DNA of 64,000 bases from Fistulifera solaris. Taxonomy: Eukaryota. The notes beneath the pieces were generated by a model, which did not search any database, was not told the DNA's origin, and worked only from the letters and a program-made list of their open reading frames with translations. A program made the position numbers and the translations under genes. The DNA is taken from contig AP026135.1 in assembly GCA_030295235.1 (NCBI GenBank), positions 1,178,001 through 1,242,000 on the forward strand. The letters are read 5' to 3'. Shown here one piece after another: positions 762-20,121 of this stretch (positions are counted from its first letter, which is position 1; each line of letters opens with the position of its first letter).

Positions 762-1313
762 ATGAAGCTCTTGCTAATCAGTTTGCTATCCGTTCTCTCT
801 TTCGCCCACGGCCAACTGGATGGAGAATTGTTTGCACCGGCGGAGCCGCCCGAGATGGTCGTCTACTATGTAAATTGGCAAGCTCCATCCACTGTCTGCA
901 ATGAAACCGAACTTGCGTACATTGACAACAAGATGCTCCCCGACCTGGACATGACTTTAGTGCAAAACAACTTTGAGACGCCGGCGTGGGAAGTTCCCTC
1001 CACCTTGACGCGACGTGAACTTCAAAATGGCAATGCGAATCCCAACAACAATGGCAAAGCAAACAACTGCGACTTTTGCCGACGTTATTACCCTCGCAGT
1101 CTTTGCAATGTAATGTACAACTGCAGAAATCGTCGTGAGCTTCGTGGGGCTGCAGAAGAAAAGCGTGAACTGCAAACTCATGAAGAACTTCAAGCCGAAC
1201 TTCTTAGTGCTTGCAGGAACAGCATCATGGAGCTCTTATACAGCCGACAAATCAGCCGTAATTGCAAGCGAGCCATTCGATGGGCGCGATGCTATGTCCA
1301 AATTATGGAGTAA
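762..1313 (+). CDS. Secreted RxL-containing Cys-rich prepropeptide, family member P1 (183 aa)
   Basis: First ATG at 762 gives a hydrophobic signal peptide (MKLLLISLLSVLSFAHG-Q). Shares PEMVVYYVN, KMxPDLD, NCDFCRRYY..CN.M.NC and RRxL motifs with three paralogs in the window. Confidence 0.85.
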   Translation: MKLLLISLLSVLSFAHGQLDGELFAPAEPPEMVVYYVNWQAPSTVCNETELAYIDNKMLPDLDMTLVQNNFETPAWEVPSTLTRRELQNGNANPNNNGKANNCDFCRRYYPRSLCNVMYNCRNRRELRGAAEEKRELQTHEELQAELLSACRNSIMELLYSRQISRNCKRAIRWARCYVQIME

Positions 1314-1898
1314 TGATTGGGTCCAACAAATCGAATGGACCGAAACGTCTCTCTCTTTCCTCTTGCAAAACGCCTCATTACTGACGAGGGGCACCGTTAA
1401 TAACTATGTATATGAATGACTTAGATCTCCATATTAATCATTGTCGGCTTAAGGGATTCTACGCGATGAGTTGTTGACCTTTCTGTTCAATCATGAAAAT
1501 ATATTTCGTCGGCGACTTTTGCCTCTGTAATGTCTCGTGCGCGCTTATTGACATAGTGCTCGCTCCTCATTGCATTGATCACGCTTTTCCCGTCTCTTCT
1601 ACAGTGGCGCATCCCAAGGCATTGTTGTCTCCCTATTGTCGATCATCTCGCATCGCATGTCCACCACCTTAGGATGCAATAAAGAATTAGTAGGGATCAG
1701 GGATTCCAGTGTCGTTTTTAGTCACGATAAGACATGATCTTACAGTAGTGCAGCAAGTACTTTCGAAAACTCCATTCAACCGCACGAAAAGCGAAAAGCC
1801 ACTTCTTCGTGTTCGGGCTTTTGCACTTCACAACCTAAACACGACAATACCTGGTATGCTTTTTATTATTCATTCATGACAATTAGATTAGAAGTCGA

Positions 1899-4098
1899 AT
1901 GCCGAAACGATTGAATCGAAGACGCAACATCGGCAATCCACAAGCAACAGGCTATCGTCTTCAAAGAGCCTGTCACACATGTTCGGGATGCCGACGACCG
2001 CCTTGTCATTTGTGTGTCTACTGTCGCGGCTTATTTCAAACAACAAGCCATCAACGAAAATGCCTCTTTCGATTGTGTCTCCATTTTTCATATACCGAAA
2101 AGACGAAAAGGAAACTCGCACTTGCCGCCCAGCGATCCTTTCAATCCTTATCGATGGGCGAACGTTTCTCGGATGATACTAGTAATCATCACTATAGTTC
2201 ACCGGAAGCACAACAATTCTTAAAACAATGTCAAGCAATTCTACTCAGAACACACAAAATCCCCGTAGAGTGCAAGAAATGGCAATTTGATTCATCCTGG
2301 CGTGTTTGGGTTCACAAGAGACAGCTGTGGGGGATCGCCCGTCGTATCTCATCGGATCCGCCGCGCTATAATATTCAATTGTTGGATCCATCGCCGAGAC
2401 CTTCCAACGGCAGCATCATTATTAATAGCAATTACTCGATCCCCCCTCCTCCACAGATTTCGAAGAAGAACACGAGGGAGAATGCTACTCCGAGTAGTAC
2501 AAAGAACGCCTTAATGCTCACAAATGTACCTCCTTACGTGAGTAAATCTACAATGGCATCTTATTTTCATTTATGATACGAAGATCATTTGGCGTATCAT
2601 TGCTTTCTGACAACATCTGACTTTGCACGATTCTTTTTCTTGACAGCTCTTTGAACTCGATTGTCAAGTCCGCTACCTCGAACGAAAGACAAAACCTTCG
2701 TCCGTTGTGAGAGCCATTCCCCAAATCAGTCAACCCTTTCTTCACGCTTGGCGAAGGTCTTCGGGAAATATCATTCAAATCCAAGGTACATGGACGGGAG
2801 AACATTGCGAGGATACGCAACAATACAAGATCAAAGTAAAGCATGCGGCAATTCAACCGACTCGGCTGAACCAAGACGAACAAATAGATGGAGAGAAGAC
2901 GATCGAATCGTTTCCACTAAATTCGTTTTGGGTGACATTGGATGATTTACAAGCGGGATATTTTTGTGCCATGGCGTCAGAGTCGACGGTACCCATTACT
3001 GATACAAACGACAGCCCACCGTTCTTCATTCAATACAAAGTTCCCCGCATGAAGTTCACAATGCAACAGGAACCGCTGTTACCACGAGTGTCGTTTGTAT
3101 ACGAGGATCGGTTCCACATCGAACTGCAAGTACTTCCTTCAAAACAAGCACCCCATGCGGGGTATGGCTTGTTCGCATACGTGAATACAATTGACGACAA
3201 TGATGACAGTAACCTCCCGAAATTGTCGACTGTAGAAATACCGCCGGGAGTATTGATTGATTTGGGTGTCTATGGCCCGCTACGCCCCGAAGATCGAAAG
3301 CCATGGCCGGCAAGGCTACTCAAAAGTTTCATCTATAGCTATCACTGTGGCTCATGGTTCTTCGAGACTTCCAAGGAGGACGATGCTGTTTTTGATATGA
3401 CGGATGACGCTACAGGACAATTGCACGAATTAGCCCGAAGAAATGTTCTGATGTACGCCAATGAAACGTCAGGATTGGAGCAAGATATCCAGTCGTTGTG
3501 GCCAATTTATGACCCTGAAGGTGCCGTTCACTTTTATCTGGGCCACCCGGATCCAGACCAAGGGCCGTTGTTACTACCCATCGGATCCCCTGTGGAGCTG
3601 CTGGTGGATTATGGAGCGCAATATGAACAAGAACGCGTGCGTAAAAATTACCCCCGTGTTACGGGAAACCACCTTCAGCACATTCAAGAGTGCTTGGCGG
3701 AAGAAGATCAAGCCATTCTACAAGATTTACAGGAATTGTCGTTGGAGGAAATGGAAGGTGACGCTATTCCCTTCTTGAAACATCTAGTTCAAGAGTGGGG
3801 AGTCATAGCCAGCGCCAGCGGACAATGCCACAAGTCGCTGCTGCTGGAACGAGCACTGATCGTGACTCTGATTCTTATACATAACCATCGCGGGAAAAAT
3901 GTTTTGTCGGAAAGCAATCTTAATTCCTTACGTACAATTCTGTCGAATCTGTGTTCATGGTTTCCTTCTGATCAGCACATAAAAAGTTACATGACATCGA
4001 ATGTTGCTTATCAAGAATTGCTTCGACGTATTTTGGGCGATTACGATTGGAATAGCATTCCGGCTCTGTTGTTTCGACGGGCCATTGTGGCGCTATAA
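1899..4098 (+). CDS. CXXC-type zinc finger + SET-like domain protein, join(1899..2537,2647..4098), about 696 aa
   Basis: GTGAGT donor at 2538 and pyrimidine-rich ...TGACAG acceptor ending 2646 join two ORFs in frame (phase 0). N-terminal C-x2-C-x2-C-x4-C-x2-C-x2-C-x12-C-x4-C. SET-like motifs HAGYGLFA, YANE, ELLVDYG. Confidence 0.7.
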
Positions 4099-4131
4099 AT
4101 CGAAATATCAATAATAGCGCCTTGACTTTAA

Positions 4132-5787
4132 TTACAACGCTTTGTCCTTGATTGATACTGGACTACTGCTGTAGCGTTCAAACGGAAGTATTGATACTAA
4201 TCGAAACACCGCCCAAAGATAGGCAACTCCTATCAAGGCACAACCAAACACACTCCACAAGACGGGAAACAAATCCGGCCAGTGTGCTGGTGGCACAACC
4301 CAACATTCGATTACGTGCAATAAAAACATGAGCATGTACGCCATTGGGCAGAACCAAAGTGCTATTCGTGATGCCTTTCTTGTCGGAGTTGAATCGAGTT
4401 CAGCCCAGAGTTGTAGAACGCTTACAAAGATGATGCCAACGGCCACGTAGGCCGTTTGCAACCGATCAATGACGAGCAACGGCCACATAGTCCACATGGA
4501 AACAAACGAAAAGAATTCCACCAGTGTCGGCGCTTCATTCCACAAGAGTGAAAGGGGTGCAGTAGCCATCAACAAGCTCTTCTCGTGAACCTGGAAACTG
4601 GCCAGAAAGAACGCCAAGGCGCAAGCACTGGTGGCCCATAATAAAACTCGCTCTTGTTCTCGCTGTGATTGCGTTGTTGCTACGGTGCTCCTTCCAATCG
4701 GATGCCGTTGTCCTACACGAAAGACTTGTACGCAAACGGGTAACATGAGCAACGCAGTGAGCCCCAGAGAGGCACGGAATTGATTCGCCGCTGATAATCG
4801 TTGCCGTATGCGAAAGGGTCGAATCGACAAAGCACACCACACATTGGCAACTTTGCCTTCAAACAATCCACGTTGCAGCGGGAATATCCGAATCAGTATT
4901 TGCTTCAGCTCTCTCCATGGATCAGATGGAGTGGCAGAGAATACAATAGGTCCCCAGAGTAGCAAAAACGTCAAGAGTACTGTGCCTCCGAGTAAAAGTA
5001 ACGAACGAAGAAAGGTCTTACGATGAGCGTAACACCGTCCCAACAAATAGCAACCCACCACTGGTGCATAATACAGTGTCATTTGTTTGAAGGAAAGGGC
5101 CATACAAAAAGCGATAGCTCCAAGTAAAACACCTCGTGTTGTTAGTTGTGTGATCCAGTAAAAAGACCACAACGACAATCCCAAGGCTGTTGTATTGTAT
5201 TGAAAGTGCCCATGATCGATCAACACCAGTGCTGGTTGCAGGAGTGCAAAGACATACGAAAAGAGGTTAAGTTCTTGCGGGTGCTGTTCATGTCGTCGTC
5301 GACGACACCATACATAGATTGATGTAAAGTAAAGCAAGACATCCAAGCCTAAGACTGTCGCTCGCATGAACGGTTTGTGTCGAATCTCCTCTTCATATCC
5401 ACGTGATGTAAACAAAGCCACCGTTTCGGGTCCTACAAGAGTATGAGATAGATATCCACATATATACGACACATATGCCGTCAAAGGCGGATAATCCAGT
5501 CCCCAGTACTCCAAATCGTAGTGATACCATTCGTGCAACGGCAAATGATACGTCAATTCCATCCAATGTCGTTGCGCTTCATAGTCTCCTCCGTATGCTT
5601 GTTTCGCACCGTGATGATTGTTTTGTCCCGAATGCGGTTGAAATCCGATTAAAACGCGATAGAATATAAGAAGTAACGTAACAGTGATTGTTGTGAGGCT
5701 GGTGGATGAGAATACAATGCCATTTTGTTGTTGCTGTAATGACGCTGAAGAGTATTTCTGTTCTGCTGCACGCTGATTATCCTCCAT
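4132..5787 (-). CDS. ALG6: Dolichyl-P-Glc alpha-1,3-glucosyltransferase (ALG6/ALG8 family)
   Basis: GDYEAQRHWME, YWGLDYPPLTAY, DHGHFQYN, FEGKVAN, QVHEKS motifs; multi-TM; C-terminal KDKAL (KxKxx ER retrieval). Start at 5787 (MEDNQR) is a guess; the ORF is open to 5889. Confidence 0.93.
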   Translation of the reverse strand: MEDNQRAAEQKYSSASLQQQQNGIVFSSTSLTTITVTLLLIFYRVLIGFQPHSGQNNHHGAKQAYGGDYEAQRHWMELTYHLPLHEWYHYDLEYWGLDYPPLTAYVSYICGYLSHTLVGPETVALFTSRGYEEEIRHKPFMRATVLGLDVLLYFTSIYVWCRRRRHEQHPQELNLFSYVFALLQPALVLIDHGHFQYNTTALGLSLWSFYWITQLTTRGVLLGAIAFCMALSFKQMTLYYAPVVGCYLLGRCYAHRKTFLRSLLLLGGTVLLTFLLLWGPIVFSATPSDPWRELKQILIRIFPLQRGLFEGKVANVWCALSIRPFRIRQRLSAANQFRASLGLTALLMLPVCVQVFRVGQRHPIGRSTVATTQSQREQERVLLWATSACALAFFLASFQVHEKSLLMATAPLSLLWNEAPTLVEFFSFVSMWTMWPLLVIDRLQTAYVAVGIIFVSVLQLWAELDSTPTRKASRIALWFCPMAYMLMFLLHVIECWVVPPAHWPDLFPVLWSVFGCALIGVAYLWAVFRLVSILPFERYSSSPVSIKDKAL

Positions 5788-6138
5788 TCTGTTTCGATAG
5801 TTTCGTTCAAAATGTTGACACAGATAGTTTAAATCAGAATCAACAGATGCTACAACATAAAGATGCTTTTGTTCTTTTAAAAAAACCATCCATCATTGGT
5901 TGTGTCTTGTGGTTATAAGCTACGTAGTACTTTTGTACGTTGCACGTTATGGTTATCCAGATTTGATTGATGACTGATGACTGAACTGCAGTCGTGGCAA
6001 AAGTTGCTTACACTTTGGGCCTATAGTTATCCCAAAGACAACAGTCTCGATGTGCATTGCAAATAATACTGATAAAGGTGAATACTTCGTGACAACGACA
6101 ACTGCAGCTTTTCAAACAAAAAGAACGAATGGAGTTTG

Positions 6139-6404
6139 GGCAGCTGTTCGGCTCGTCGAAAAGCATGACTCCTCATGACTCATGACTGAAATGCTAAGAT
6201 AAATACGAAAGGCAGCGATTTCGCCAAGGATTTTTGGCACGAGGTACCGGGTATCGAGGTGTGTATTGCAAATTACAAATACAATGCTGATGACTGATGA
6301 TTACTGTCTTTTTTTATAACAAGTGGCAAGTGGCAACTGGCAGTTCGGCTCCGTCCGAAAAGCATGTCTCCTCATTCCTCATGACTCATGACCTGAAATA
6401 ATGC
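6139..6404. repeat. Imperfect direct repeat (6139..6194 and 6339..6404) in the divergent ALG6/HCF101 intergenic region
   Basis: Both copies read GGCAG..TTCGGCTC..GAAAAGCATG.CTCCTCAT..CTCATGAC.TGAAAT. Confidence 0.6.
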
Positions 6405-6678
6405 AGTCGTTGATAAGTTCCGTCACCAGTCAACACATTGAAGCCATAGTAAAGGACGGCGGCGCACGTTGAAGTTGTGAAAGGGAAAGCGAAAACGTCA
6501 CGCAAATTTTTGTCCCCATCCTTACAATTGCAACGCTCTTTTTTTCTTTGCAGCCGAACAATGGCCGCCGATGTACAAAAGTATACCAGGTGCTTGTAAG
6601 GTATAAAGCTTCAAACCGAAGGGCAGTTATACAGAGAGAAACACCAAGCATCACGACATATCTTCAGGCTTCTCTTCT

Positions 6679-8388
6679 ATGTTCACAATGAACCGTTTCA
6701 CTGCTTTACGATTCGTGACGACAGTCTTCCTGTTTCCGACGGCAACCTTGTCGTTTGCACCTCAACCGATCAGTCGTTCGACATCGACTACGCTTTCTCT
6801 CTCCTTCTTTTCTGCTTTACACACCACAACACGTCTCAAAGATGCTAGCAGTACAAATAGGGAAATTCCTACCGAATGGCAAGGCGTTGTTTTATCGAAA
6901 TTAAAACAAATTCAAGATCCTGATTTGATGGTCGATATTGTGACGGCTGGATTTTGTCAAAATTTGAAGTACGATCCCATCAATTCGAAATTATCCATGG
7001 ATTTAGAATTAACGACACCGGCCTGTCCGGTCAAAGATCAATTTCAACGAGATTGTGAACAGTTGTTGCTAGAATTGCCATGGATTCAACAAGTTGAAGT
7101 GACTCTCACGGCACAGCCACAGGGCACTTCCTCGACATCTTTGACTGGTTTAGCACAGGTCGGTGCCATTGTAGCCGTTTCTTCGTGTAAAGGAGGTGTC
7201 GGAAAATCAACCACGGCCGTCAATTTGGCCTTTTCCTTGCAACAGCTGGGGGCGACGGTTGGAATTTTAGATACCGACTTGTACGGACCCAGTTTACCCA
7301 CCATGGTGACACCCGATGATGATATTGTGCGCTTCGTGGGTCGACAAATTGCGCCGTTACAACGCAATGGCGTACGATTGTTGAGTTTTGGGCACATTCA
7401 CGATCAAGCGGCCGTTATGCGTGGTGCCATGGTTACGCAGTTGCTGGAACAGTTCCTCGATGTGTGTCAGTGGGGTAAACTCGATTATCTCATTGTGGAT
7501 ATGCCACCGGGGACGGGTGATATTCCCTTGACGTTGACACAGAAACTCAATTTGACGGCAGCTGTCATTGTGACCACACCGACGGAACTCAGCTTTCAAG
7601 ATGTCAAGAAAGGAATTGAAATGTTTGACACCGTCCAAGTACCGTGCATTGCTGTAGTAGAAAATATGGCGCATTACGAATTGCCGGAATCGATGAAAGA
7701 AACCGTCGCAAAAGCGGTTCAACAATCGTCTTATGTTACTGACGCGGAACAAGTCACACAAGAAGTGTGGAAAGCGTTGCAGAATACGCCTTTGCCTATT
7801 TTTGGAGCCGGCCACCGATCGACGTTGCAACAAATGTACGGCATTGAACAACATTTCAAAGTACCACTTATGGATCAAGTGGCGTATGAAGGAGATCATG
7901 GGACACCATTTGTGTTACAACAGCCCGATTCCTCCGCTACGCGTGTTTACAGATCACTAGCACAAGCCGTGGTCCAAGAAGTCGCCAAGGTCAAATACAC
8001 ACACCCAAATCAGCGTTTGTCTTTAGAATACAATCGAGATACGCATGTTGTGGCTTTGAAACAAGGTACCAGTCCACAAGAAGAAGAGATTAGTACGTTG
8101 TCTCCAGCGACCATTCGTCGTGCTTGTCGTTGTGCGGCATGTGTTGAAGAATTGACCGGTCGACAAATCTTGTTGCCGAGTATGGTGTCGGAGAATATTT
8201 CACCACTTCGCATGCAATCGGTAGGAAACTATGCCTGGAGTATTGATTGGAGTGATGGACATCGGTCCTTATATCCTGAAAAGAGTCTTCGGGCCCTGGG
8301 ATCACAAAAGCAAAAACCAACTACAAAAGACTCGTCGTCGGCGACACCAGCGTCGGTGGTGAGAGAACGCGTACAAGAGCGTGTTTAG
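6679..8388 (+). CDS. HCF101: Plastid Fe-S cluster scaffold HCF101 (DUF59 + Mrp/NBP35 P-loop ATPase + DUF971)
   Basis: Signal peptide then S-FAP; LTTPACP; SCKGGVGKST; DMPPGTGD; VVENM; C-terminal CRCAAC...W.DGH.SLY. Confidence 0.93.
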   Translation: MFTMNRFTALRFVTTVFLFPTATLSFAPQPISRSTSTTLSLSFFSALHTTTRLKDASSTNREIPTEWQGVVLSKLKQIQDPDLMVDIVTAGFCQNLKYDPINSKLSMDLELTTPACPVKDQFQRDCEQLLLELPWIQQVEVTLTAQPQGTSSTSLTGLAQVGAIVAVSSCKGGVGKSTTAVNLAFSLQQLGATVGILDTDLYGPSLPTMVTPDDDIVRFVGRQIAPLQRNGVRLLSFGHIHDQAAVMRGAMVTQLLEQFLDVCQWGKLDYLIVDMPPGTGDIPLTLTQKLNLTAAVIVTTPTELSFQDVKKGIEMFDTVQVPCIAVVENMAHYELPESMKETVAKAVQQSSYVTDAEQVTQEVWKALQNTPLPIFGAGHRSTLQQMYGIEQHFKVPLMDQVAYEGDHGTPFVLQQPDSSATRVYRSLAQAVVQEVAKVKYTHPNQRLSLEYNRDTHVVALKQGTSPQEEEISTLSPATIRRACRCAACVEELTGRQILLPSMVSENISPLRMQSVGNYAWSIDWSDGHRSLYPEKSLRALGSQKQKPTTKDSSSATPASVVRERVQERV

Positions 8389-8484
8389 AATGACAGAGCA
8401 CATCATATCAAATAAATCATTCAATCTGCACCTTTCTAATGTTTATGGTATTCTTCTCTATCAAAATGTAATTTGAGATCTTGA

Positions 8485-10033
8485 CTATTCTGTGACATTC
8501 ACACAAGCCTGCTCTAAAAAGGAAATGATCCGATGTCCTGCTTCTTCCAATACGGCTGTGGGTGCCCCAAACACGATACGGAAAAAGTTATCCGACGCTT
8601 TCATTCCGAAGCAAGATCCTGGCAACACAAGTACGTTTTCTTGCCGCAACAATTCGCGAGTCCATTCGGCATCGGTTTTCACGATACTTTGGCGACGAGG
8701 AGGCACGATTTGAACCATCAGATACATGGCGCCCTGCGGGTGATACACCTTCAAGTACGGCGACTGTCGCAGCACTCGTTCGACGGCGTGCGCCTGCTGT
8801 CGCAATTTGTGACGCCACTCCTGTTTCCAGACGACAATTGTCGTGTCATCGGGCCCCGTGGACGTGAGAGCAGCTGGAATCGCCCACTGTACGACATGAC
8901 TGGCACCCATGATCACTTGCGCCAATTGTTGAGCTCCATGTCGAATGGATTGCAATGTACCGTAAATGCTGTATATTGTTGCAAAGGACAAATGAGATTA
9001 ACTACACAACAACGCCACTTGTCAAACTTCACATGGACTTACTTGTCATGAAACACGAGCCAACCGACACGCCATCCAGGAACCAAATACTGCTTCCCCA
9101 ACCCAGAAGCTTGGATGATCGGCACATGCGGCGACGGAATCATATCGTTGCGAACATTCGCCAAGCTATGAAAGGCACACCTGTCGTGCAGTGTCATATC
9201 CCCATAGATTTCATCGGAAATGACCATGAGATGGTATTTGTCACACAACTGCAAAAATTTTTGCAAATGAGTCTTGGAAAAGACGGCTCCGGTCGGATTC
9301 GACGGATTGTTGATGAGAATCGCTTTAAAGTGATGGTTGTTGGGCTGTTGCAACAAGGTTTCCAGTTCTACTAAATCCATGTACCATTCTTCCGTCTCAT
9401 TGTTGTATTTCAAAGGATAAGATTGTGTTTGACATCCTAACGAGTGACAAATGACATTGTAAAGTGGAAATCCTGGACACGGAATCAACAATACATCGTG
9501 AGGAGGCTGTAATGTGGCACGGAATAAGAGTTCCAGAGCACCTGAACATCCGTTGGTGATAATGACATGATCCGGTGTTACGTGTAATGTCGGAACACCA
9601 TTTTCGCAATTGCTATGCGACGCGATCGCTTGACGAGCTGACAGCATCCCGACTGCCGGGATATAGCCCGTTGATTGGAGGAGATGTTGTTGAATGGCTT
9701 GTACTACCACTGGACAAGGAGGAAAATAAGAGGACGGGTCACCCAACTGAAGACCGAATTGGATACTTTAAAAGTAAGTATCGATAGAGAAAGAAACAAT
9801 ATACATCATCTCTTTCCCAGTTTACTACTTACCGCAAGTGAAATATATGATTTGTCATGCTCTTGCACTGATGCAAGGAAAGGATCGACAATAGCGCGGA
9901 TAGGATTATAGGTTCTTTGCGCTTCCTTTGATGCGGGTATCACCGGCCACTTCAGTGATAAAAGAGTGACTTTGGAGGATGCATTGCCGACTGCTTCTTC
10001 TTCTACACCAACTACCGAAGTTGGAGAAGTCAT
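8485..10033 (-). CDS. TAT: Tyrosine/nicotianamine-type class I PLP aminotransferase, complement join(8485..8968,9043..9746,9833..10033)
   Basis: Two GTAAGT...AG introns (9747..9832, 8969..9042) restore ISLA-LGDP and HDN-IYG. Motifs NPIR, INNPSNPTG, DEIYG, GLGKQYLVPGWRVGW, PQGAMY, LPGSCFG. Confidence 0.9.
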
Positions 10034-10692
10034 TTCTTCTTCTTGCTCGTGTTCGTTTAAAGTAACTGAATGAACGAATGAACGAATGAAAGGGTGAGTT
10101 GGATGACTTCCTCAAATACAAAGTAATAGACTAGTACTTGTAATGTGATGGAGCGATTTAGTGTGATGTGATCCGGTTATGCGAACACATCACCTCAAAT
10201 GAATATGTTGGGACGATCGGATCAACTGTCATTGATTTCTCCACAAAAGAACAAAATCAAAAGGGGCGTCTCCTTTCCGAATTCCTATCAAAATGCAAAA
10301 CAGAGCGAAAGAATTCTCAATTCATTCACGAATGTTGTCGACACGTACCGTGAGCGTGACTGGAGCGATTTTGATGCTTGATTGATTACCAGTACTCGCA
10401 TTTCTTGCGAAAAGAAAAAAATTCTTTTGGCGCCGTCACAATGAGAGGTAAGATACAAGTTAAATACAAGTTATATTAACAAAGAATACGCCAGCGAGCC
10501 CGTAATCATAATAGCAGCCTAACGCTGATGAAAAGGATAGAAGAGAAAAGATGAAGAGGCACATAATGATTTCATCATTTATGAAATGCTTTCTGTTGCT
10601 CACATGAGCAGATAAGCTGAGAGAATTATTCTAAACAACTGATACCAGCAAGGCCCGCCGCTTGATAGCTCGAAACCAATGACATGTATTCA

Positions 10693-11181
10693 TCAAACGA
10701 ATTCAACATGGCAGGTCGCATCTGAAATGGCGGCTTGGCAAGAAAGGCTGAGAGCTGTGTTTGTTGAAAGCGCCGCGATGCTCTCCTCACAGTCCTCAAG
10801 AAGCTCTGAACCCAAGTCGTCATCATCGCTGTCCTCATCCAGCTTACGGAGCTGCCGACGGATCCGGCAGTTGAACATTGCCTTGCAGAGAGATGCTGTG
10901 TAATAGCGCCGGCAAAAATCACAGTTTGATGATGTGAGCTTCCGGCGGTCGTCGTCGTTGTTGTCAGAGACTTCCCAATCTGGTGCCTCAAAGTTGTTGG
11001 CAAGAAGAGTCGAATCAAGGTCCGGGAGCATCGCATTAGAAATGTATGCCAATTCACTTGAGTTACAGACGGTCGCGTTGGCTTGCTCGTTGACAAAGTA
11101 GACAACCATCTCGGGGGGCTCTGTCAGTTGTCCAGTGACAGAAGCAAGAGTCGAGAGCAAAGAGACGAGAAGGAACTTCAT
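10693..11181 (-). CDS. Secreted RxL-containing Cys-rich prepropeptide, family member P2 (162 aa, acidic)
   Basis: ATG at 11181: MKFLLVSLLSTLASVTG-Q; PEMVVYFVN; RRKL; NCDFCRRYY; RRQLRKL; ends CHVEFV. Confidence 0.85.
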   Translation of the reverse strand: MKFLLVSLLSTLASVTGQLTEPPEMVVYFVNEQANATVCNSSELAYISNAMLPDLDSTLLANNFEAPDWEVSDNNDDDRRKLTSSNCDFCRRYYTASLCKAMFNCRIRRQLRKLDEDSDDDDLGSELLEDCEESIAALSTNTALSLSCQAAISDATCHVEFV

Positions 11182-12862
11182 GTTAGGCTGCGTTGCTGAA
11201 ATGTCGGTATCGAACGTTTTTTTGATGGAAATGAAATTATGAGAAGTTGATGTTGCAAACGGTTGGAAAAATTGCCAGGTCGTCCAGCATGCGGAGGCAG
11301 ATTTTTTGTTATGTGGGTTCGTCCAAGAATGACGACTCACACTAAACATTAGTTAATGTTGTGACCAGCAAGACTTAACAGCTTATGGATGAGTGCCGGA
11401 CCAGTAGAATTCACGGTCGACGTTGTTCGAAGAACAAATAGCATCCGTTTTCTTTCTTTTGGTTGCTGCTTAGACAATAATTGACAAAGCCTTTTTCCCT
11501 TTTCGACAGATTGCAGATTGCTGATTGCTACAAACTTTTCCAACCAAAAAGGGAAGAAAGGGTCACGTGCACCATTAAGTGGAGTCGGGGATAAAGGCAT
11601 AAATACTTACATAGTAACACCCGCTTTCAACTAAAGGTACAAGCTACTTGGTATTAATAAATACAAGAACAGAAAACGCAAGACTCCTCTCTCTGAGAAA
11701 TCGATCATTAATCCAGAATCCAGAGTCCAGACTTATTATACATACGAAACAGAAAAGGTGAAACAGGTTTAAATTTTTTAAAGGAAGAATAATACTCGAT
11801 ATTCCAAAACGGAGTTCGGAGTATATAAATGGGAGAGTGGCTTAAATGTAAGCGAATAATGATGCTATACAAAGTTCAATTTAAACACGCACAGCGCACA
11901 GCCCGCCTTCACACGACCCACAACCACGACATCTCCTATCTCTGACGTCTGACTCTGACGTCTCTGACATCTGAAATGACTCTGACACCTGACACTGGTA
12001 AACGTCATGAAGCGACACAAGACGCAATTCCATGTTCTCTGATCCCTACCAGTATCTACGACGAGGCAGAATTTTAACGTCCTTCCCAGGTACGGTACGG
12101 TACGGTACCGGTAGTACAAATGCCTCGAATCTTCAGTACGAGGCGTTCAAATCTGCTGCCGCAGCAGGACATTGCATAGAGTTTGACAAGGATCTCAAAG
12201 GAGTATAGGATCTTGCGACTTGCGACCCCGCCAGATTTTCACGTCCTTTACCATTCGCATGCCGCTCAACCTTTTTGGGCCTCGAGCCTCGAGCCTCGAG
12301 CCTTTTTTATTTTTACCTGGTAAGAGGCCGACAGAAAACCTCGGGTGACACGTCATCTGGTCTGTCACGGATGTGACGTTAGATCTCCGGGGAGCGAGCC
12401 CCTCGGTTGCGGAAAGGGCGAGAACGAAAAAAGCTCCCCGGAGTCAGACGCCAAAGTCGGCTAGTAAAAATCTAAGTCGACGTGATTGCGGTTTACAAAG
12501 AATAGTAGAGTCTTCGTAGAGAGAGCTAGATCATTGCCACCACTGATGTAGCCTCTCTATTGCCTCGTCACTCATCGCTCATCGAATTCAACTGTAATCT
12601 GCCAGATGACTAAAGCTAGCGTTTTCTTCCTACGTCGTAAGAGTGAACAGTGGAACGGAGTAGAGATACCGAAACCAAAACAGTACGATGATATCTTTGC
12701 TTGCTGCCATGCTAAAGCTCAAGTTATAACATGCGTTATTCTTTAACAACTAAAATGTCCAATATCCTTATGTGAATCTTTTGGCGTGGACACGATCTTT
12801 CCGCTACGATATGTAACTATGAATAAGACTCCTTGCAATTGCCTTGAATCTGTTCTCGGTCT

Positions 12863-13435
12863 CTAGATGAACTCCACATGGCAGACAGACGATCGTAGAG
12901 CGGCTTTGCAAGAACGGCTGAGGAATTTGCTAGAAGATAGACTGTTAACATTTTGCTTGCATTCAAGCAAAACGTCAGCAGATAGATCAGTCAGTTTTCT
13001 GCCATCATCTTGACGTTTGCGAAGCTGACGACGGAACCCACAGTTGAACATTGCATTGCAGTAGCTACGCGGGTAAAGCCGTCTGCAAAAGTCGCAGTTG
13101 TTGGAAGAGACGGCTGCGCTGAATGAGCCGAAAGTTCCGGAGTCAAGGACCGCTTCGGCATCAATGAGCTTGCGTTTTGCGGCGTCGGCAGTTACCTTCC
13201 ACTTGGGAACTTCGTAGTTGTTTGCAAGCAGTGCCATGTCAATGTCGGGGATCATCTTGCTGTCAAGGAATAAAAGCTCTTGCTCGGTACACGAAGTCGG
13301 CCCGGCTTGCTCGTTTACGTAGTATACGACCATTTCAGGTGCCTCCATCGGCGCTCGAGCTGCATCATCAAGCGTCATGAGTTGTCCATTGACAACAGCG
13401 AGAGCTGAAAGCAAGGTGGGAAGAAGAAACCTCAT
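12863..13435 (-). CDS. Secreted RxL-containing Cys-rich prepropeptide, family member P3 (190 aa)
   Basis: ATG at 13435: MRFLLPTLLSALAVVNG-Q; PEMVVYYVN; KRKL; NCDFCRRLY; RRQLR; RKL; ends CHVEFI. Confidence 0.85.
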   Translation of the reverse strand: MRFLLPTLLSALAVVNGQLMTLDDAARAPMEAPEMVVYYVNEQAGPTSCTEQELLFLDSKMIPDIDMALLANNYEVPKWKVTADAAKRKLIDAEAVLDSGTFGSFSAAVSSNNCDFCRRLYPRSYCNAMFNCGFRRQLRKRQDDGRKLTDLSADVLLECKQNVNSLSSSKFLSRSCKAALRSSVCHVEFI

Positions 13436-14449
13436 TGTGATCTTTTCAAGTATCGGTGTTGTTTTTGACCTGGAGGGAATTTGTGTGAAATTGTGCAGGT
13501 TTAAGCCGAAACAAAAAGCTCCATGGGCGAACCTTAATAAACGGATTTTGGAGAACGAATTTACGACCAACTACAAAAGTGGTGTACCAGCGAAATGATA
13601 TTGAGTATTGAGTATTGGGGATTGAGAACAAAGTCAAGATTAGCAAAGATGCCAAATAGTACAGAAGCCGAAAGAAGTAATAAGTATTGTCATCCGGTTT
13701 TTGCCTTTCAGGCCCTAATAAGCAAAAAGACATAAAAGACGAGTACTTGTACATTTTTTCTGCGTTTGGGAAAGTGTTATGCCGAGCAAGACGCCGTTTG
13801 CCGATAGCAAACAAGCTACAATAGTGAGGCTGTATTTTGTGTAAGGAAGGCCGACAATTGACACAAGCAAAAGTCAGATTCCGCTTAGCACAGTAAATTG
13901 ATGCAAATTTTCCAAGTACCGTACTTGTAACGGTACGGTTTACGGTGTACGGTACCGGTACCTAAACCTAATTTCGTAGAGCGCAATAGGACACAGCGTT
14001 AAAGTTTTGCCTCGTCGTGGACGCTAAGTAAAGTCTTGTACTGGAGGCAGAATTTTGCCGTTCTTTGGTACAAGTACGGTACCCGGTATTAATCGGAATA
14101 ATTCCTGTTCCGATAAAGACTGAAAACACGGATTCCAGTCCAGACCTCAGACTTTACACCTCACACTTCACACAAGGGAAGGATCGTTCGTAATTACGTT
14201 TACTACAAAGCACTCGTACCGGTACCTGGTATTGCCCTTCTAAAGCCCAAAAAAAACACTGTGGAAACAGTCGGACGTGGCTTGGTTCTTTACGAGGCTT
14301 CACCCAACAACAGGAAGTCAACAAACTAATCCAAAGGAGAATACTTTCACCCAACAACTATCATCATCATTCATTATAATATTATGTTATGAAAAAAAAA
14401 AGCTCCCGATGACACAACAACATGAAATTCCTACTGGTACACGGAATTT

Positions 14450-14542
14450 AAATTGACTCATGACCATCCTAGCTCGTTTCTCACTCATGCGCATCGGTAC
14501 CCAGTCTTTAAGTAAAATTAATCGTTACATAGTCACACCCGT
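14450..14542 (-). mobile_element. Partial copy of the MITE-like element at 17268..17389 (reverse complement, one terminal repeat missing)
   Basis: About 93 bp nearly identical to the reverse complement of 17268..17363, ending in ATCGTTACATAGTCACACCCGT. Confidence 0.65.
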
Positions 14543-16046
14543 TACCGCGTCCTTCAACGGAGAATTCGAGGGTGGATGACATCAACACGCGATTTGTTGT
14601 GGACGAAAGGAGAATGATCTCAGTCTCGATCTTTTATAGGCGTCCCTATCCCTATCTACGACATCCACTATGAACTACTCCTATAGAAAGTTTGTGCTTA
14701 GAAATGTAACAAGAGTGGACGTGAGACTTCGCTCTTCGATTCCACTTTTCACTGATGCCTGGTAAGCTCCGAGGTCATTATTGACACACTGTCAAGAGAG
14801 GAGTCTATGCTACGCCGTTAACGGTATTTGACGACTTTCAATGACATTGAGCAGCGGTAAGCTTTGCATTCGAATTTGATTATTGTTCAAAACTTTCGGG
14901 TCTCGGGTCCACTGGCCACTGGACGATGATGATCATGATCATGATGACGATGAATTTCCATTTGCAAACGGATAAACATCGTCGAAATTGCTTTGTAAAA
15001 CGTGCTTCGTTGAATCCGAGTTATATTGATTCGCAAGTTGCTTTTTGCGCCTATCGTTCATAACCTCCTTTTATCTATGATTTTTGTCAGTAAATGAAGA
15101 GATGTTATGTTGCAGCATTTGACGCGATACTATTAAATCTTAAAAAAGAATTTTGCAGGCTCCACTCGATGCAATAAAGGTTGTCTGAAACCCTATTGCT
15201 TGAGATACATTATGGTAGCAATTGTGGTTTTGAAATTCCGGAACAATGTTTCCTGGATAATTTTTCCTAGATTTGTCGACAGGGTGGCCCCGACAGAGGA
15301 GCAGTGGCTTGCGACGCCAATGAAATGGCGATGTCAACTCTATCAAGGCCAGAGAATTTTATTTTGTCCATGCACAGTGTTCTCATAAACGGTGCAAGCC
15401 GCCAACATCGCAGTAATAAGCCATTCGAGGCGGATTGTAGAATCGAGCCTTTCAAGTTTCATGTCGAAAGGTGTTCATGAAAATGTCTCCACAACTGTTA
15501 CATAAAGAATGCTGCTGTTGAGATAAATCAACAAAGTGCTCGAACAATCGAATTATGCAGCTGTAATTCTAGAAGAAAACGACCCGCTCATTATTTGAGC
15601 GATTGAGAGAGTTTTTGACCAGAAAGAATTAGGAAGAGAACTTTCAGAAAAACAGATTATTGCCCATCAAAGTTGATGCTTGAAACCAATCCAGTTCTTT
15701 TTTTCTTTTGTTTGTTGCTTTTGAATCAAGTCTAACGAATCCTTCTTAACCAGCGTACACATTGAAACGAAGACACGCCCACGGATTGACGTAGCCAGAT
15801 CTACCCACAGAATGACATTTAAGCTCTCAAAAGTGATCCTCGCTTTGGTACGTAGTAATGAACTAAGAGTCTCGAGCACAATGGATTATTTTTTCCTGCA
15901 AAGGATATTTCAACACAACACAAGCCAAAGATTTAAAAAAGAAATATCAATGAAATATCTCTATGATATCGTAGTATAATTTCGTATCGGGATTTATTAA
16001 CAAATGCATGCAGCTTAACGACAGCAACCTTCTTCTTTAAAGCCAC

Positions 16047-16535
16047 TTAGACGAACTCAACATGGCAAGTAGAGCCTGCAAGAGCAGTTTGGCACGTTTT
16101 GCTGAGAAATCGGTTTCTTGACGAGATCAAAGCAACATTGTCTTGGCACATTTGTAACATCTCAGCGCCAAGCTCTTTAGTGTCCAACTTGCGCGAAGCG
16201 TCATTCTGACGAAGCTGCCGACGGAAGCCGCAGTTGAACATTGTGTTGCAGTAGGATCGGCTGTATCTATCTTTGCACCAGTCGCAGTTAGCATTTAACT
16301 TGCGTCGGGTGGGGTCCGTAGTAGTGAACTCCCATTTAGCCGGGTCGAAGTTGTTGGAGATGAGAGCCATGTCGAGGTCAGGAATCATTTTGCTGTCAAT
16401 GTAAAAGAATTCCTCTGGAGTGCAAGCATTTTCCCCTGCGTTAACGTTAACATAATAGACGGCGACTTCGGGAGCCGCAAGCTGTGCAGTGACAGAAGCG
16501 GCAGTTGCGAATAAAGAAATGATAATAGATTTCAT
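16047..16535 (-). CDS. Secreted RxL-containing Cys-rich prepropeptide, family member P4 (162 aa)
   Basis: MKSIIISLFATAASVTA-Q; PEVAVYYVN; RRKL; NCDWCKDRY; RRQLR; RKL; ends CHVEFV. Confidence 0.85.
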   Translation of the reverse strand: MKSIIISLFATAASVTAQLAAPEVAVYYVNVNAGENACTPEEFFYIDSKMIPDLDMALISNNFDPAKWEFTTTDPTRRKLNANCDWCKDRYSRSYCNTMFNCGFRRQLRQNDASRKLDTKELGAEMLQMCQDNVALISSRNRFLSKTCQTALAGSTCHVEFV

Positions 16536-17934: not shown

Positions 17935-20121
17935 ATGCTCCGTAGTAGCTTGAGCACTTTATATTCCGCAGCACGCCGTGACTATTCCACGACGCTCCTA
18001 CGCAACAAGGAACGCCCGAACATTTCTTCTGTGTTGATCGCCAACCGTGGAGAGATCGCTCATCGCATCGTTCGAACGCTCAACAAATGGGACATTGAGT
18101 CTCATACGGTTCATTCTTGCGTCGATCCTCGCGTAAAGGGGTCTAACTACACGCATCCTATAGGAACGGGCCCGCAGTCTAACGAATCTTATTTGCTCGG
18201 TGAAAAATACATAGATTTGTGTTTGCAACACAATATACAAGCTATTCATCCAGGTTATGGCTTTTTGAGCGAGTCGACTGCTTTTGCACAAGCCGTCATC
18301 GATGCAGGATTGACTTGGATCGGACCATCGCCTCACAGCATGAATCTCATGGCCTCGAAAAGCGTCGCAAAACAGATTATGCAAGATCGGGGTGTTCCTG
18401 TTACGCCTTCTTATCACAATGATGAAAATCAGTCGTATGAACATTTATTGCAACAGGCAAGAGAGATTGGCTTTCCGGTTTTGATCAAAGCTGTCATGGG
18501 CGGTGGAGGAAAGGGGATGCGGATCGTTCGACAAGAGAAAGAATTCCTGTCGTCATTGCAAGCCTGTCAGCGTGAAGCCGCCGCATCCTTCAAAAATGAT
18601 ATCGTGTTACTCGAAAAATACTTAGATCAACCGAAGCATGTGGAAGTTCAGATTCTAGCAGACTCGCACGGCACAACTTTGGCTTTGGCAGAACGCGACT
18701 GTTCACTTCAGCGGCGACATCAAAAGATTATTGAGGAAGCGCCGGCGAGTTACTTGTCGGACGAAATCCGTCAAGATTTGTGGTACGCCGCGGTTCAGGC
18801 TGCCGAAGCGGTAAACTATGTCAACGCTGGAACGATCGAATTCTTGTTGGACTCTAATTTGAAGTCGTTTTACTTCTGCGAAATGAACACTCGGTTGCAG
18901 GTAGAACACCCCATTACGGAAATGATTACCGGATTGGATTTGGTCGAGCAGCAGCTGCGTGTTGCAGCGGGAGAGCGGCTTGCGTTTTCACAAGAAGACG
19001 TGGTGTGTCGTGGACACGCCTTTGAGGCGCGCGTTTACGCCGAGAATCCAGCTCAGCAGTTTCTTCCCGCAGCGGGAGATATGTGGTATTGTCAAACTCC
19101 TCAAGATGGTTGTCGCGTCGATCACATTCCTGATCATTCTCATGTTAGTGTTTTCTACGATCCCATGATCTCGAAAGTCATTGTGCACGGAGGAGATCGT
19201 GACCAGGCACTGAAAAAGCTTGTACGGAGCTTGCAGCAATATCATGTTGCCGGGGTTCCGACTAACTTGGAGTTTTTGCTGAAATGTGCGAAGCATCCGG
19301 TGTTCTCCGCTAGTGCTGCGCAAGTCCATACAGGATTTCTAGCGGATCATCCCCTTCAAGAAGAGCTTGCTGTAAAGCATGCCGGTCCCTCGCCATTGTC
19401 GCAAGCTTTAGGAGCTTGTGTGGTCCAGCTTTGGTTAGAGCAGCGATTAGAATGCTTTGATGATACTTCGACGAGTCAACCGTGGTCCAATCGATGGGGC
19501 ACCTGGAGATTGGGAGGCCATTTGCAGGTGAGAAAACTGCCCTGGATAAAGGATTCCTCTATGTCCTGTACCTATCAACCAGACGGATCCTATCAAATGA
19601 CATTAGAGGATGGAACATCGTACCATGTCCGAGTGTCGAAATCACATACCGTATCGAGAAATGAACTTCATTTTGTTGTCGATGATTCGATTCATTGGAC
19701 AGTAACTGCAGTCCTGTCCATGCCAACACACGACAGTCTTCACGTTTGTTTATGGCCGAAGAATCACCCAACGGATTTTCTGTGGGAATTTAAAGTTCCA
19801 CATCCTTACATGCACCACAGCAATGATGGCGAAGCCAAGGCACTGCATTCTGGACAAATTAAAAGCCCTATGCCAGGTACTTTGCGAACGGTAGAGTGCC
19901 AAGTCGGGCAAACTGTCGTCAAAGGGCAAACGCTGGTTGTTATGGAGGCAATGAAAATGGAACATGCGCTAGTTGCGCCATTTGATGGTACAGTGACGCA
20001 AGTTTGGTCTTTTGCAGCAAAAACGGTTCCGGATGGAGCCGTTCTTGTCACGTTGGAACCCACCGAGTCGACTGGCTTAGACGGTGGTGTCAGCCCTGAA
20101 ACAAACTTTGCTGTTCAGTAG
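17935..20121 (+). CDS. MCCA: Biotin carboxylase/BCCP subunit, most likely methylcrotonyl-CoA carboxylase alpha (mitochondrial)
   Basis: LIANRGEIA, HPGYGFLSE, GGGGKGMR, ERDCSLQRRHQKIIEEAP, EMNTRLQVEHP, C-terminal AMKM biotinylation site; Arg/Ser-rich presequence. Confidence 0.88.
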   Translation: MLRSSLSTLYSAARRDYSTTLLRNKERPNISSVLIANRGEIAHRIVRTLNKWDIESHTVHSCVDPRVKGSNYTHPIGTGPQSNESYLLGEKYIDLCLQHNIQAIHPGYGFLSESTAFAQAVIDAGLTWIGPSPHSMNLMASKSVAKQIMQDRGVPVTPSYHNDENQSYEHLLQQAREIGFPVLIKAVMGGGGKGMRIVRQEKEFLSSLQACQREAAASFKNDIVLLEKYLDQPKHVEVQILADSHGTTLALAERDCSLQRRHQKIIEEAPASYLSDEIRQDLWYAAVQAAEAVNYVNAGTIEFLLDSNLKSFYFCEMNTRLQVEHPITEMITGLDLVEQQLRVAAGERLAFSQEDVVCRGHAFEARVYAENPAQQFLPAAGDMWYCQTPQDGCRVDHIPDHSHVSVFYDPMISKVIVHGGDRDQALKKLVRSLQQYHVAGVPTNLEFLLKCAKHPVFSASAAQVHTGFLADHPLQEELAVKHAGPSPLSQALGACVVQLWLEQRLECFDDTSTSQPWSNRWGTWRLGGHLQVRKLPWIKDSSMSCTYQPDGSYQMTLEDGTSYHVRVSKSHTVSRNELHFVVDDSIHWTVTAVLSMPTHDSLHVCLWPKNHPTDFLWEFKVPHPYMHHSNDGEAKALHSGQIKSPMPGTLRTVECQVGQTVVKGQTLVVMEAMKMEHALVAPFDGTVTQVWSFAAKTVPDGAVLVTLEPTESTGLDGGVSPETNFAVQ

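Follow-up and report, generated by a model that had tools for sequence, protein, structure and literature searches.

To our knowledge, the processing of diatom wall proteins at RXL or RRxL motifs is a long-standing unsolved step, to which no protease has been assigned. The established RXL substrates are disordered, heavily modified and hard to work with. According to the available text of one study, mature silaffins lack the RRIL and RRNL stretches that end the repeats of the precursor Sil1p, and RXL is proposed there as a general endopeptidase motif (PMC4557024). Elsewhere, RXL is described as a proteolytic site in biosilica-associated proteins, yet the part that it plays in the processing of precursors "remains to be proven" (PMC5647440, available text), and it has been treated as a potential cleavage site in fusion design (PMC9650480, available text). 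Here, we analyze a stretch of 64,000 nucleotides (nt) from the diatom Fistulifera solaris (GenBank assembly GCA_030295235.1, contig AP026135.1, positions 1,178,001 to 1,242,000; hereafter, the window), which carries four genes, P1 to P4, whose products have RRxL motifs on both sides of a cysteine-rich core. P1-P4 are paralogues and belong to a so far undescribed family of small, presumably secretory-pathway proteins, and processing at RRxL into a multi-chain product is its most likely reading, with a probability of roughly 0.5. An earlier reading of the letters of the window (the sequence-only reading) had called RxL an established processing signal, which is slightly overstated in view of these passages.

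The family has a putative endoplasmic reticulum signal and a diatom origin in common with Sil1p (Cylindrotheca fusiformis) and the RXL wall proteins (silacidins, cingulins, frustulins, SAPs). In both Sil1p and the family, RRxL stands between the units of a secreted precursor, in the forms RRIL and RRNL in Sil1p (as far as its available description goes) and RRKL, RREL, RRQL and RRNL in the family. This likeness rests on motif and layout, not on sequence comparison with reference proteins. Indeed, silaffin-type proteins are of low complexity, Lys/Ser- or acid-rich and largely unfolded, whereas the family has a compact predicted disulfide-bonded fold, is non-repetitive and lacks such tracts.

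Insulin/relaxin-type prohormones and plant 2S albumins are made of two chains cut from one precursor. They have the same order as the family, i.e., signal, chain, middle piece flanked by basic sites, and chain; also in the family, a joint fold and a disulfide link are predicted for the two outer chains. But in the family the middle piece is the best conserved one and has four to six Cys of its own, RRxL is not a plain dibasic site, and fold and Cys pattern are unrelated: the likeness is one of analogy, not of homology. The SEA-type extracellular domains are cut in a loop and their halves stay associated. Both would have in common that an alpha+beta sandwich outside the cell is cut in its central loop (a prediction, in our case), and SEA-like folds did appear in the structure searches at noise level (6v55_A, Z 6.2, root-mean-square deviation 3.4 over 88 residues; 8vm1_A, Foldseek E 2.2). 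The family differs from them in having a Cys-rich insert in the loop and no autoproteolysis motif; besides, no Pfam SEA model matched in 45 members (E<=10).

Among diatom signals, the sex-inducing pheromone of the raphid pennate Seminavis robusta (SIP+) is a small extracellular disulfide peptide, whose biosynthesis is stated to be unknown in the available texts of PMC12843257 and PMC12352721. Its C-x-x-C ring recalls the start of the family core. Nevertheless, SIP+ is described there as a heptapeptide in which a Cys-Ala-Leu-Cys ring is followed by Hyp-Hyp-sulfo-hydroxyAsp. A search of 57 collected proteins and of the window in all six frames returned neither C[AL][AL]CPPD nor C..CPP; hence, the family was rejected as a SIP+ precursor.

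Layout of the four proteins

The genes P1-P4 are intronless open reading frames (ORFs; Table 1). P2, P3 and P4 share their orientation and are found within 6 kb, whereas P1 is located 9 kb off, on the opposite strand. A motif scan of all six frames of the whole window returned exactly four copies of the family, namely P1-P4. That four ORFs with one shared layout exist at these positions had been proposed in the sequence-only reading; the coordinates were confirmed, and a four-way alignment shows 45 invariant columns, including all eight Cys, with identities to P1 of 56, 47, and 43%. The common order is the following: (i) a signal; (ii) Q-L; (iii) an acidic N-part with one Cys; (iv) [RK]RxL (site 1); (v) a core with four Cys, C-D-[FW]-C-x8-C-x5-C; (vi) RRxLR (site 2); (vii) a further RxL; and (viii) a C-part with three Cys and the end C-[HY]-V-[EQ]-[FI]. 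Apart from the Cys, the invariant columns comprise Q18-L19, PE..VY.VN, P-D-x-D, NN, W, the pre-core R-x-L, the remainder of N-C-D-x-C...Y..S.C..M.N-C, the post-core R-R-x-L-R, and the near-terminal C..V.

The residue patterns that had been put forward for the N-part and the C-terminal end hold in most positions, except that P2 reads VYFVN and has NAM in place of KM, P4 has NNFDPAKW, unlike NN[FY]..P.W, and P1 ends in CYVQIME. Likewise, the third RxL is a separate site in P1, P3, and P4, as claimed, but in P2 it abuts site 2 (RRQLRKL). If the chains were cut after the L of the motifs, the predicted pieces would be N-chains of 63-73 amino acids (aa; isoelectric point 4.1-4.4), spacers of 3-10 aa, C-chains of 42-48 aa, and core peptides of 24, 25, 36, and 44 aa, or 28-48 aa with the trailing RRxL. 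About 22-40 aa had been estimated for the excised peptide in the sequence-only reading.

Judged by eye, the signal peptides consist of M-[KR], 11-13 hydrophobic residues and small-x-small, after which comes Q. With such putative signal peptides, P1-P4 would be secreted, and the conserved Q might be converted to pyroglutamate, as supposed in the sequence-only reading. In the plastid-type bipartite signals of diatoms, F, W, Y or L is expected after the signal cut; a signal of this type is unlikely for P1-P4, because Q, and none of those residues, follows the presumed cut.

Relatives and conservation of motifs and cysteines

The search for relatives suggested in the sequence-only reading was carried out with a profile of P1-P4. 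It matched 28 proteins in a set of 5.8 billion (E 5e-48 to 2e-78) and 26 cluster representatives in a set of 1.84 billion (E<=0.001); P0044 and P0049 were left out of these 26 as repetitive chance matches. When 45 aligned members were used as query in a second search, six proteins of greater divergence were gained, for about 50 relatives overall. The only matches that carry an organism name are five proteins of Fistulifera solaris, and the family is apparently diatom-restricted. One F. solaris protein is 86% identical to P1, and three proteins (one of them without organism name) are 81-82% identical to P4, values that point to a close relative or a homoeologous copy. No relative was found in JGI metagenome contigs with either P0055 or the alignment A1 as query, and the ESM Atlas gave no usable match to the family. 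In the literature, no description was found of the family, of the five FisN locus tags or of five family motifs, the supplementary tables of Fistulifera proteome papers lying outside this search.

The expectation that the family matches no characterized domain was borne out in searches of Pfam, PDB sequences and folds. P1-P4 have no Pfam match at E<=10. Across the 45 members, at the same threshold, 19 Pfam families were touched, each by a single member and with E 0.0097 or worse; neither saposin nor SEA was among them. UniRef nonetheless names three relatives from Fistulifera solaris (P0009, P0011, and P0015) "Saposin B-type domain-containing", which would make the family saposin-like, lipid-binding proteins. 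Saposins are all-helical bundles with a six-Cys pattern and three disulfides. The family, in turn, has a 1+4+3 Cys spacing, and its models show two long paired strands and three long helices. With 0/45 members matching any saposin Pfam model, saposin identity was rejected at sequence level, and a saposin-like protein is extremely improbable. No saposin chain was present among the fold matches listed, which does not by itself rule out a family outside that list.

In the profile search of PDB sequences, only the zinc-ribbon protein eL43 was matched (best E 0.07; E 0.07-0.1 over profile positions 99-135). This match is what could be said for the view that the four core Cys bind a metal in the manner of a zinc knuckle (C-x2-C...C-x5-C) and form no disulfides. 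But these E-values are not significant, the proteins start with a putative signal peptide and their Cys are even in number in each pair of segments, which is what oxidized secretory proteins should show, and the core grows to six Cys in some relatives instead of keeping a four-ligand site. Metal binding is therefore regarded as very unlikely.

The columns conserved in at least 90% of the 45-member alignment are the eight Cys, L58, W68, A151, R78 and L80 of site 1, and R105, R106, and L108 of site 2. Of the stretches compared, the four residues of site 2 show the strongest conservation (entropy of 0.60 bits), followed by site 1 (1.50 bits). As had been claimed, the core is somewhat more conserved (1.73 bits) than the N-part (2.03 bits) and the C-part (2.14 bits); linker 2 has 2.35 bits. 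The conservation of RxL in orthologues, for which the sequence-only reading had called, extends to distant relatives: an RxL precedes the core in 42/45 members (within-linker shuffles: mean 8.0, maximum 18, in 2000 trials) and follows it in 43/45 (shuffled mean 18.3, maximum 28), although these shuffle controls overstate independence because the 45 sequences are related. Per position, the density of RxL is 0.0575 and 0.116 in the two linkers vs. 0.0049 in the folded N- and C-parts, i.e., 12 and 24 times higher. The residue before the R of the motif is itself R in 25/52 motifs of linker 1 and in 42/80 post-core motifs. In linker 1, there are 0-3 copies of RxL, at 0-31 residues from the first core Cys, and the rest of the linker is unconserved; after the core, a second RxL is present in 36/45 members, sometimes in tandem (RRQLRKL, RRNLRNL). 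As seen in these alignments, the RxL motif is kept even where the surrounding linker is unalignable and behaves as a conserved linear motif.

Cysteines follow the pattern 1/4/3 (N-part, core, C-part) in 35/45 members and 1/6/3 in 5/45, the other five being one fragment and four members with extra or lost Cys. The number of core Cys is even in 45/45, and also in all 54 proteins that were parsed. This arithmetic (1 + 4 or 6 + 3) fits the proposed scheme, in which the core Cys pair among themselves and a single disulfide holds the N- and C-parts together. In P0046, C130 and C157 are lost together while C38 and C148 are kept, which suggests, from this single sequence, that C130-C157 is a disulfide internal to the C-part and that C38-C148 links the C-part to the N-part (P4 numbering).

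The N-part is acidic (median charge -9, negative in 43/45 members). The Cys block is mildly basic, with a median of +1, a range from -2 to +3, and positive values in 37/45; a defensin-like logic, in which the core should be strongly cationic, was rejected on these values.

Predicted fold and the case for cleavage

AlphaFold2 models were obtained for P4 with 45 sequences (predicted local distance difference test, pLDDT, 71.4; predicted template modeling score, pTM, 0.61) and for P0053, which is about 23% identical, with 41 sequences (pLDDT 73.1, pTM 0.63). In P4 and P0053, respectively, the models consist of a strand (24-29 / 25-31), a long helix (40-60 / 37-57), a poorly defined middle, a second long helix (119-140 / 129-152), a further helix (146-153 / 159-167), and a last strand (156-161 / 169-175). 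The N- and C-parts reach a pLDDT of 80-97 in both models. By contrast, pLDDT falls below 50 over site 1 (73-84 / 75-82) and over the core end and site 2 (101-110 / 103-122), and the P4 core is drawn with low confidence as two short helices (82-90 and 93-99). Since the two terminal strands are the only ones of at least three residues in each model, they pair with each other, as had been foreseen for the VYYVN and CHVEF segments. Hence, the N- and C-parts are predicted to form one confident alpha+beta domain with its first and last strands paired. Single bridge residues are also modeled at positions 63 and 110 of P4.

No fold match was found with Foldseek at E<=0.001 for either model. An exhaustive VIA-align search gave only generic ferredoxin-like sandwiches, such as 7n7s_A (Z 6.8, root-mean-square deviation 3.5, 106 aligned residues) and 2ec2_A (Z 6.6, root-mean-square deviation 3.9, 98 aligned); the typical background of this tool is Z 7-8, and the best rows of the family fall under that line. 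A complex prediction of the N-part (18-80) with the C-part (109-162), in which alignments were not used, scored 0.21 against a mark of 0.34 and weighs neither for nor against an association.

The processing that we favor would proceed as follows. The N-part (strand-helix, one Cys) and the C-part (helix-helix-strand, three Cys) would fold into one alpha+beta domain, and the core, probably a helical hairpin of four or six Cys closed by its own disulfides, would hang on two flexible linkers that bear the RRxL/RxL motifs. During passage through the secretory pathway, a diatom "RXL" endoprotease would cut at the linker motifs, in the way proposed for silaffin precursors. From the single chain, two products would arise: an N/C heterodimer with a disulfide between its chains (putatively C38-C148, P4 numbering), and a core peptide of 24-44 aa with two disulfides, which may be either released or still docked on the N/C domain. 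The product would act outside the cell, at the cell surface, in the wall or in the medium. In this scheme, we infer the secretion, the disulfide pairing, the cleavage and the fate of the core. Processing is considered the most likely reading because the RRxL motif matches that of the silaffins, is conserved like the Cys, and lies in the least confident and probably exposed linkers, which flank a stapled unit.

Two relatives are of relevance for this question. P0055 (381 aa) and P0056 (378 aa) carry the whole module after the signal and, directly behind it, a PF11999 (DUF3494) domain of the ice-binding proteins of polar algae (E 5e-32 and 2e-32, respectively); this domain is absent from P1-P4. 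The Pfam model covers residues 190-371 of the fusion relatives, and the module itself lies outside it. The module is made up of signal, N-part, RxL, a six-Cys core, RRQL, RVL and C-part. As both proteins are 53% identical and colinear from end to end, the fused architecture is a conserved one, and a chimera of the assembly is excluded. From its sequence, it appears that the module can also serve as the N-terminal domain of a larger secreted protein. No fused forms were found at 668-2000 aa, which is weak evidence, lengths of 446-667 aa falling outside the search. As a separate observation, six shorter paralogues carry the same MRVFLSLLAP signal as P0055 and P0056.

Several points weigh against cleavage. 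First, one main site is absent from 5/45 members, namely site 1 from P0020, P0022, and P0030 and site 2 from P0036 and P0041. Second, no family protein with a mature end at an RXL motif, and no other record of cleavage in the family, was found in the literature; as far as the available text of PMC5647440 goes, biosilica-associated proteins are the only ones with RXL sites reported to date. P1-P4, moreover, do not have the Lys/Ser-rich, low-complexity character of silaffins and cingulins. Third, the module being the N-terminal domain of an ice-binding protein in P0055/P0056 suits an intact domain at least as well. Fourth, the signal peptide was recognized by eye, and the low pLDDT of the linkers may stem from the shallow alignments (41-45 related sequences) and not from flexibility. 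Finally, site 2 might itself form a strand within the domain, its conservation then being structural, because a bridge residue is modeled at 110 and the fold matches are four-stranded ferredoxin-like sandwiches.

These points lead to the main alternative, possible though on the whole doubtful, of an uncut, single-chain, disulfide-rich protein, secreted or at the surface, in which RRxL(R) is structural (for instance, as inner strands of a ferredoxin-like sandwich) or forms a basic binding patch, and the four-Cys block is a stapled subdomain. The fold searches, which align approximately residues 19-162 or 19-176 as one ferredoxin-like domain, agree with it, as do the bridge residues and the intact module of the two fusions; but those matches are under the noise line of the tool. 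Further, an uncut chain would not readily explain why the number and position of RxL vary in linker 1 while the motif itself is kept, why tandem forms exist, or why both sites lie in the lowest-confidence stretches of two independent models.

The fusions can be accommodated in yet another way, namely if the N/C domain were a carrier, sorting or anchoring module, similar to a pro-domain. Its cargo would be the ice-binding domain in the fusions; in the stand-alone genes, the module by itself, or the core as its cargo, would be brought to the cell wall or surface, and cuts, if any, would serve maturation, not the release of a hormone. The strongly acidic N-part would suit such a function, and the available texts of three papers tie RXL to wall-associated proteins (PMC5647440, PMC4557024, PMC9650480). 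However, a single kind of fusion partner was found, longer fused forms did not appear in the size range searched, and neither lysine clusters nor other known silica-targeting features were seen in P1-P4. We consider a carrier function unlikely.

Returning to processing, a free bioactive core peptide is speculation. It is improbable, but of consequence, that the family represents the first gene-encoded peptide-precursor system of diatoms, in which an RXL protease would excise a helical-hairpin peptide of 24-44 aa with two disulfides, as an extracellular signal (mating, density, settlement) or as a defense peptide, from a carrier domain folded around it. If the peptide were released, a diversity of signals would come from the divergence of the paralogues, of which four are clustered here and further ones exist in Fistulifera solaris.

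In general terms, the family belongs to a known kind, that of diatom secretory precursors with RRxL sites; what is new is the substrate, a compact domain with cysteine bonds and a stapled insert, restricted to its lineage and with no Pfam or PDB relative. Small, expressed and folded proteins in which two or three RRxL motifs are strongly conserved and located in exposed linkers would offer a clean substrate for assays, by which the cut could be proved, its rules worked out and the enzyme searched for. Were the core peptide truly released, the family would be the first of ribosomal peptide precursors in diatoms, a group in which, according to the available text of a 2025 review, pheromone biosynthesis is an open topic (PMC12352721). 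And an uncut protein would still amount to a so far undescribed extracellular domain, recruited before ice-binding proteins by a polar lineage.

Expression and genomic context

Expression was followed in RNA contigs from three runs of one study (X2, X3, and X5) and from a freshwater metatranscriptome (X4). The contigs of X2, X3, and X5 behave as complementary DNA: they lie over genes only, those of X2 and X3 skip 74 nt (8968->9043, CT..AC) inside the aminotransferase gene, and in all three runs there are poly(T) loose ends of 21-24 letters before 15977, corresponding to a poly(A) tail 70 nt behind the P4 stop. In X2, X3, and X5, RNA covers 842-1301 of P1, 10804-11239 of P2, and 16116-16574 of P4, always colinear with the genome; therefore, the covered parts of the three genes are free of introns. 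In X4, the contigs cover 822-1079 and 1263-1448 (P1), 10648-10897 and 10912-11073 (P2), and pieces within 16260-16510 (P4). P1, P2, and P4 are real and expressed genes. No RNA contig was found for P3 (12863-13435) in the four runs, but contigs are unable to show absence. The X4 pieces differ from the window at 0-3 positions, so that the same or a very close strain was transcriptionally active in that freshwater sample.

The word depth of the P4 contig is 259, 120, and 187 in X2, X3, and X5, respectively, vs. 4-31 for neighboring contigs; this is only a hint of high P4 expression, because contig depth cannot rank genes. The P4 contigs of these three runs go over into unlike sequence at three points (16574, 16540, and 16409), which may be due to contigs joined to transcripts of paralogues or homoeologues, or to splicing of a 5' leader. 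Regarding P2, its open frame extends 56 codons upstream, to an ATG at 11349, and one RNA contig reaches 11239; this upstream part is probably 5' untranslated region (UTR), because the homologues begin at the MKFLL signal (11181).

Table 1. Features of the P1-P4 locus and its neighbors, with positions given in the window.
Feature	Position	Strand	Details
P1 gene	762..1313	+	183 aa; signal 762-812; acidic N-part 813-1010 (1 Cys); C-part 1173-1310 (3 Cys); stop 1311-1313
P1 site 1 RREL	1011..1022	+	R and L columns at least 90% conserved in 45 members
P1 four-Cys core C-x2-C-x8-C-x5-C	1068..1124	+	motif scan
P1 site 2 + spacer + site 3	1131..1172	+	RREL 1131-1142; REL 1164-1172
ALG6/ALG8 glycosyltransferase	4132-5889	-	E 3e-114
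NUBPL/ParA-type Fe-S P-loop NTPase	6679-8388	+	FeS_assembly_P and GBBH-like_N domains
Class I/II aminotransferase, split by 74-nt intron	within 8485-9647	-	intron 8968-9043, GT..AG on - strand
P2 gene	10693..11181	-	162 aa; signal 11131-11181; N-part 10948-11130; C-part 10696-10839
P2 site 1 RRKL	10936..10947	-	
P2 four-Cys core	10867..10923	-	motif scan
P2 site 2 + directly adjoining second RxL	10840..10860	-	RRQL 10849-10860; RKL 10840-10848
P3 gene	12863..13435	-	190 aa; signal 13385-13435; N-part 13178-13384; C-part 12866-12991
P3 site 1 KRKL	13166..13177	-	
P3 four-Cys core	13040..13096	-	motif scan
P3 site 2 + spacer + site 3	12992..13033	-	RRQL 13022-13033; RKL 12992-13000
P4 3' UTR, 70 nt	15977..16046	-	AATAAA about 17 nt before poly(A) addition site 15977
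P4 gene	16047..16535	-	162 aa; signal 16485-16535; N-part 16308-16484; C-part 16050-16184
P4 site 1 RRKL	16296..16307	-	pLDDT <50 over residues 73-84
P4 four-Cys core	16230..16286	-	modeled as two short helices (82-90, 93-99), low confidence
P4 site 2 + spacer + site 3	16185..16223	-	RRQL 16212-16223; RKL 16185-16193; pLDDT <50 over residues 101-105 and 107-110
Biotin carboxylase with biotinyl domain	17935-20121	+	

The regions of 400 nt upstream of P1-P4 have no 8-mer common to all four genes and no 9- or 10-mer common to three of them. The genes that lie between P1 and P4 have housekeeping functions (ALG6/ALG8 glycosyltransferase, NUBPL-type P-loop NTPase, class I/II aminotransferase), and a biotin carboxylase follows beyond P4. 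Two more ORFs on the + strand, 1899-2576 (225 aa) and 2971-4098 (375 aa), have no Pfam match at E<=0.001; X2 RNA contigs touch 2337-4088. Just upstream of the aminotransferase intron, one X2 contig shows 16 differences at 9096-9216, as if from a second allele or homoeologue.

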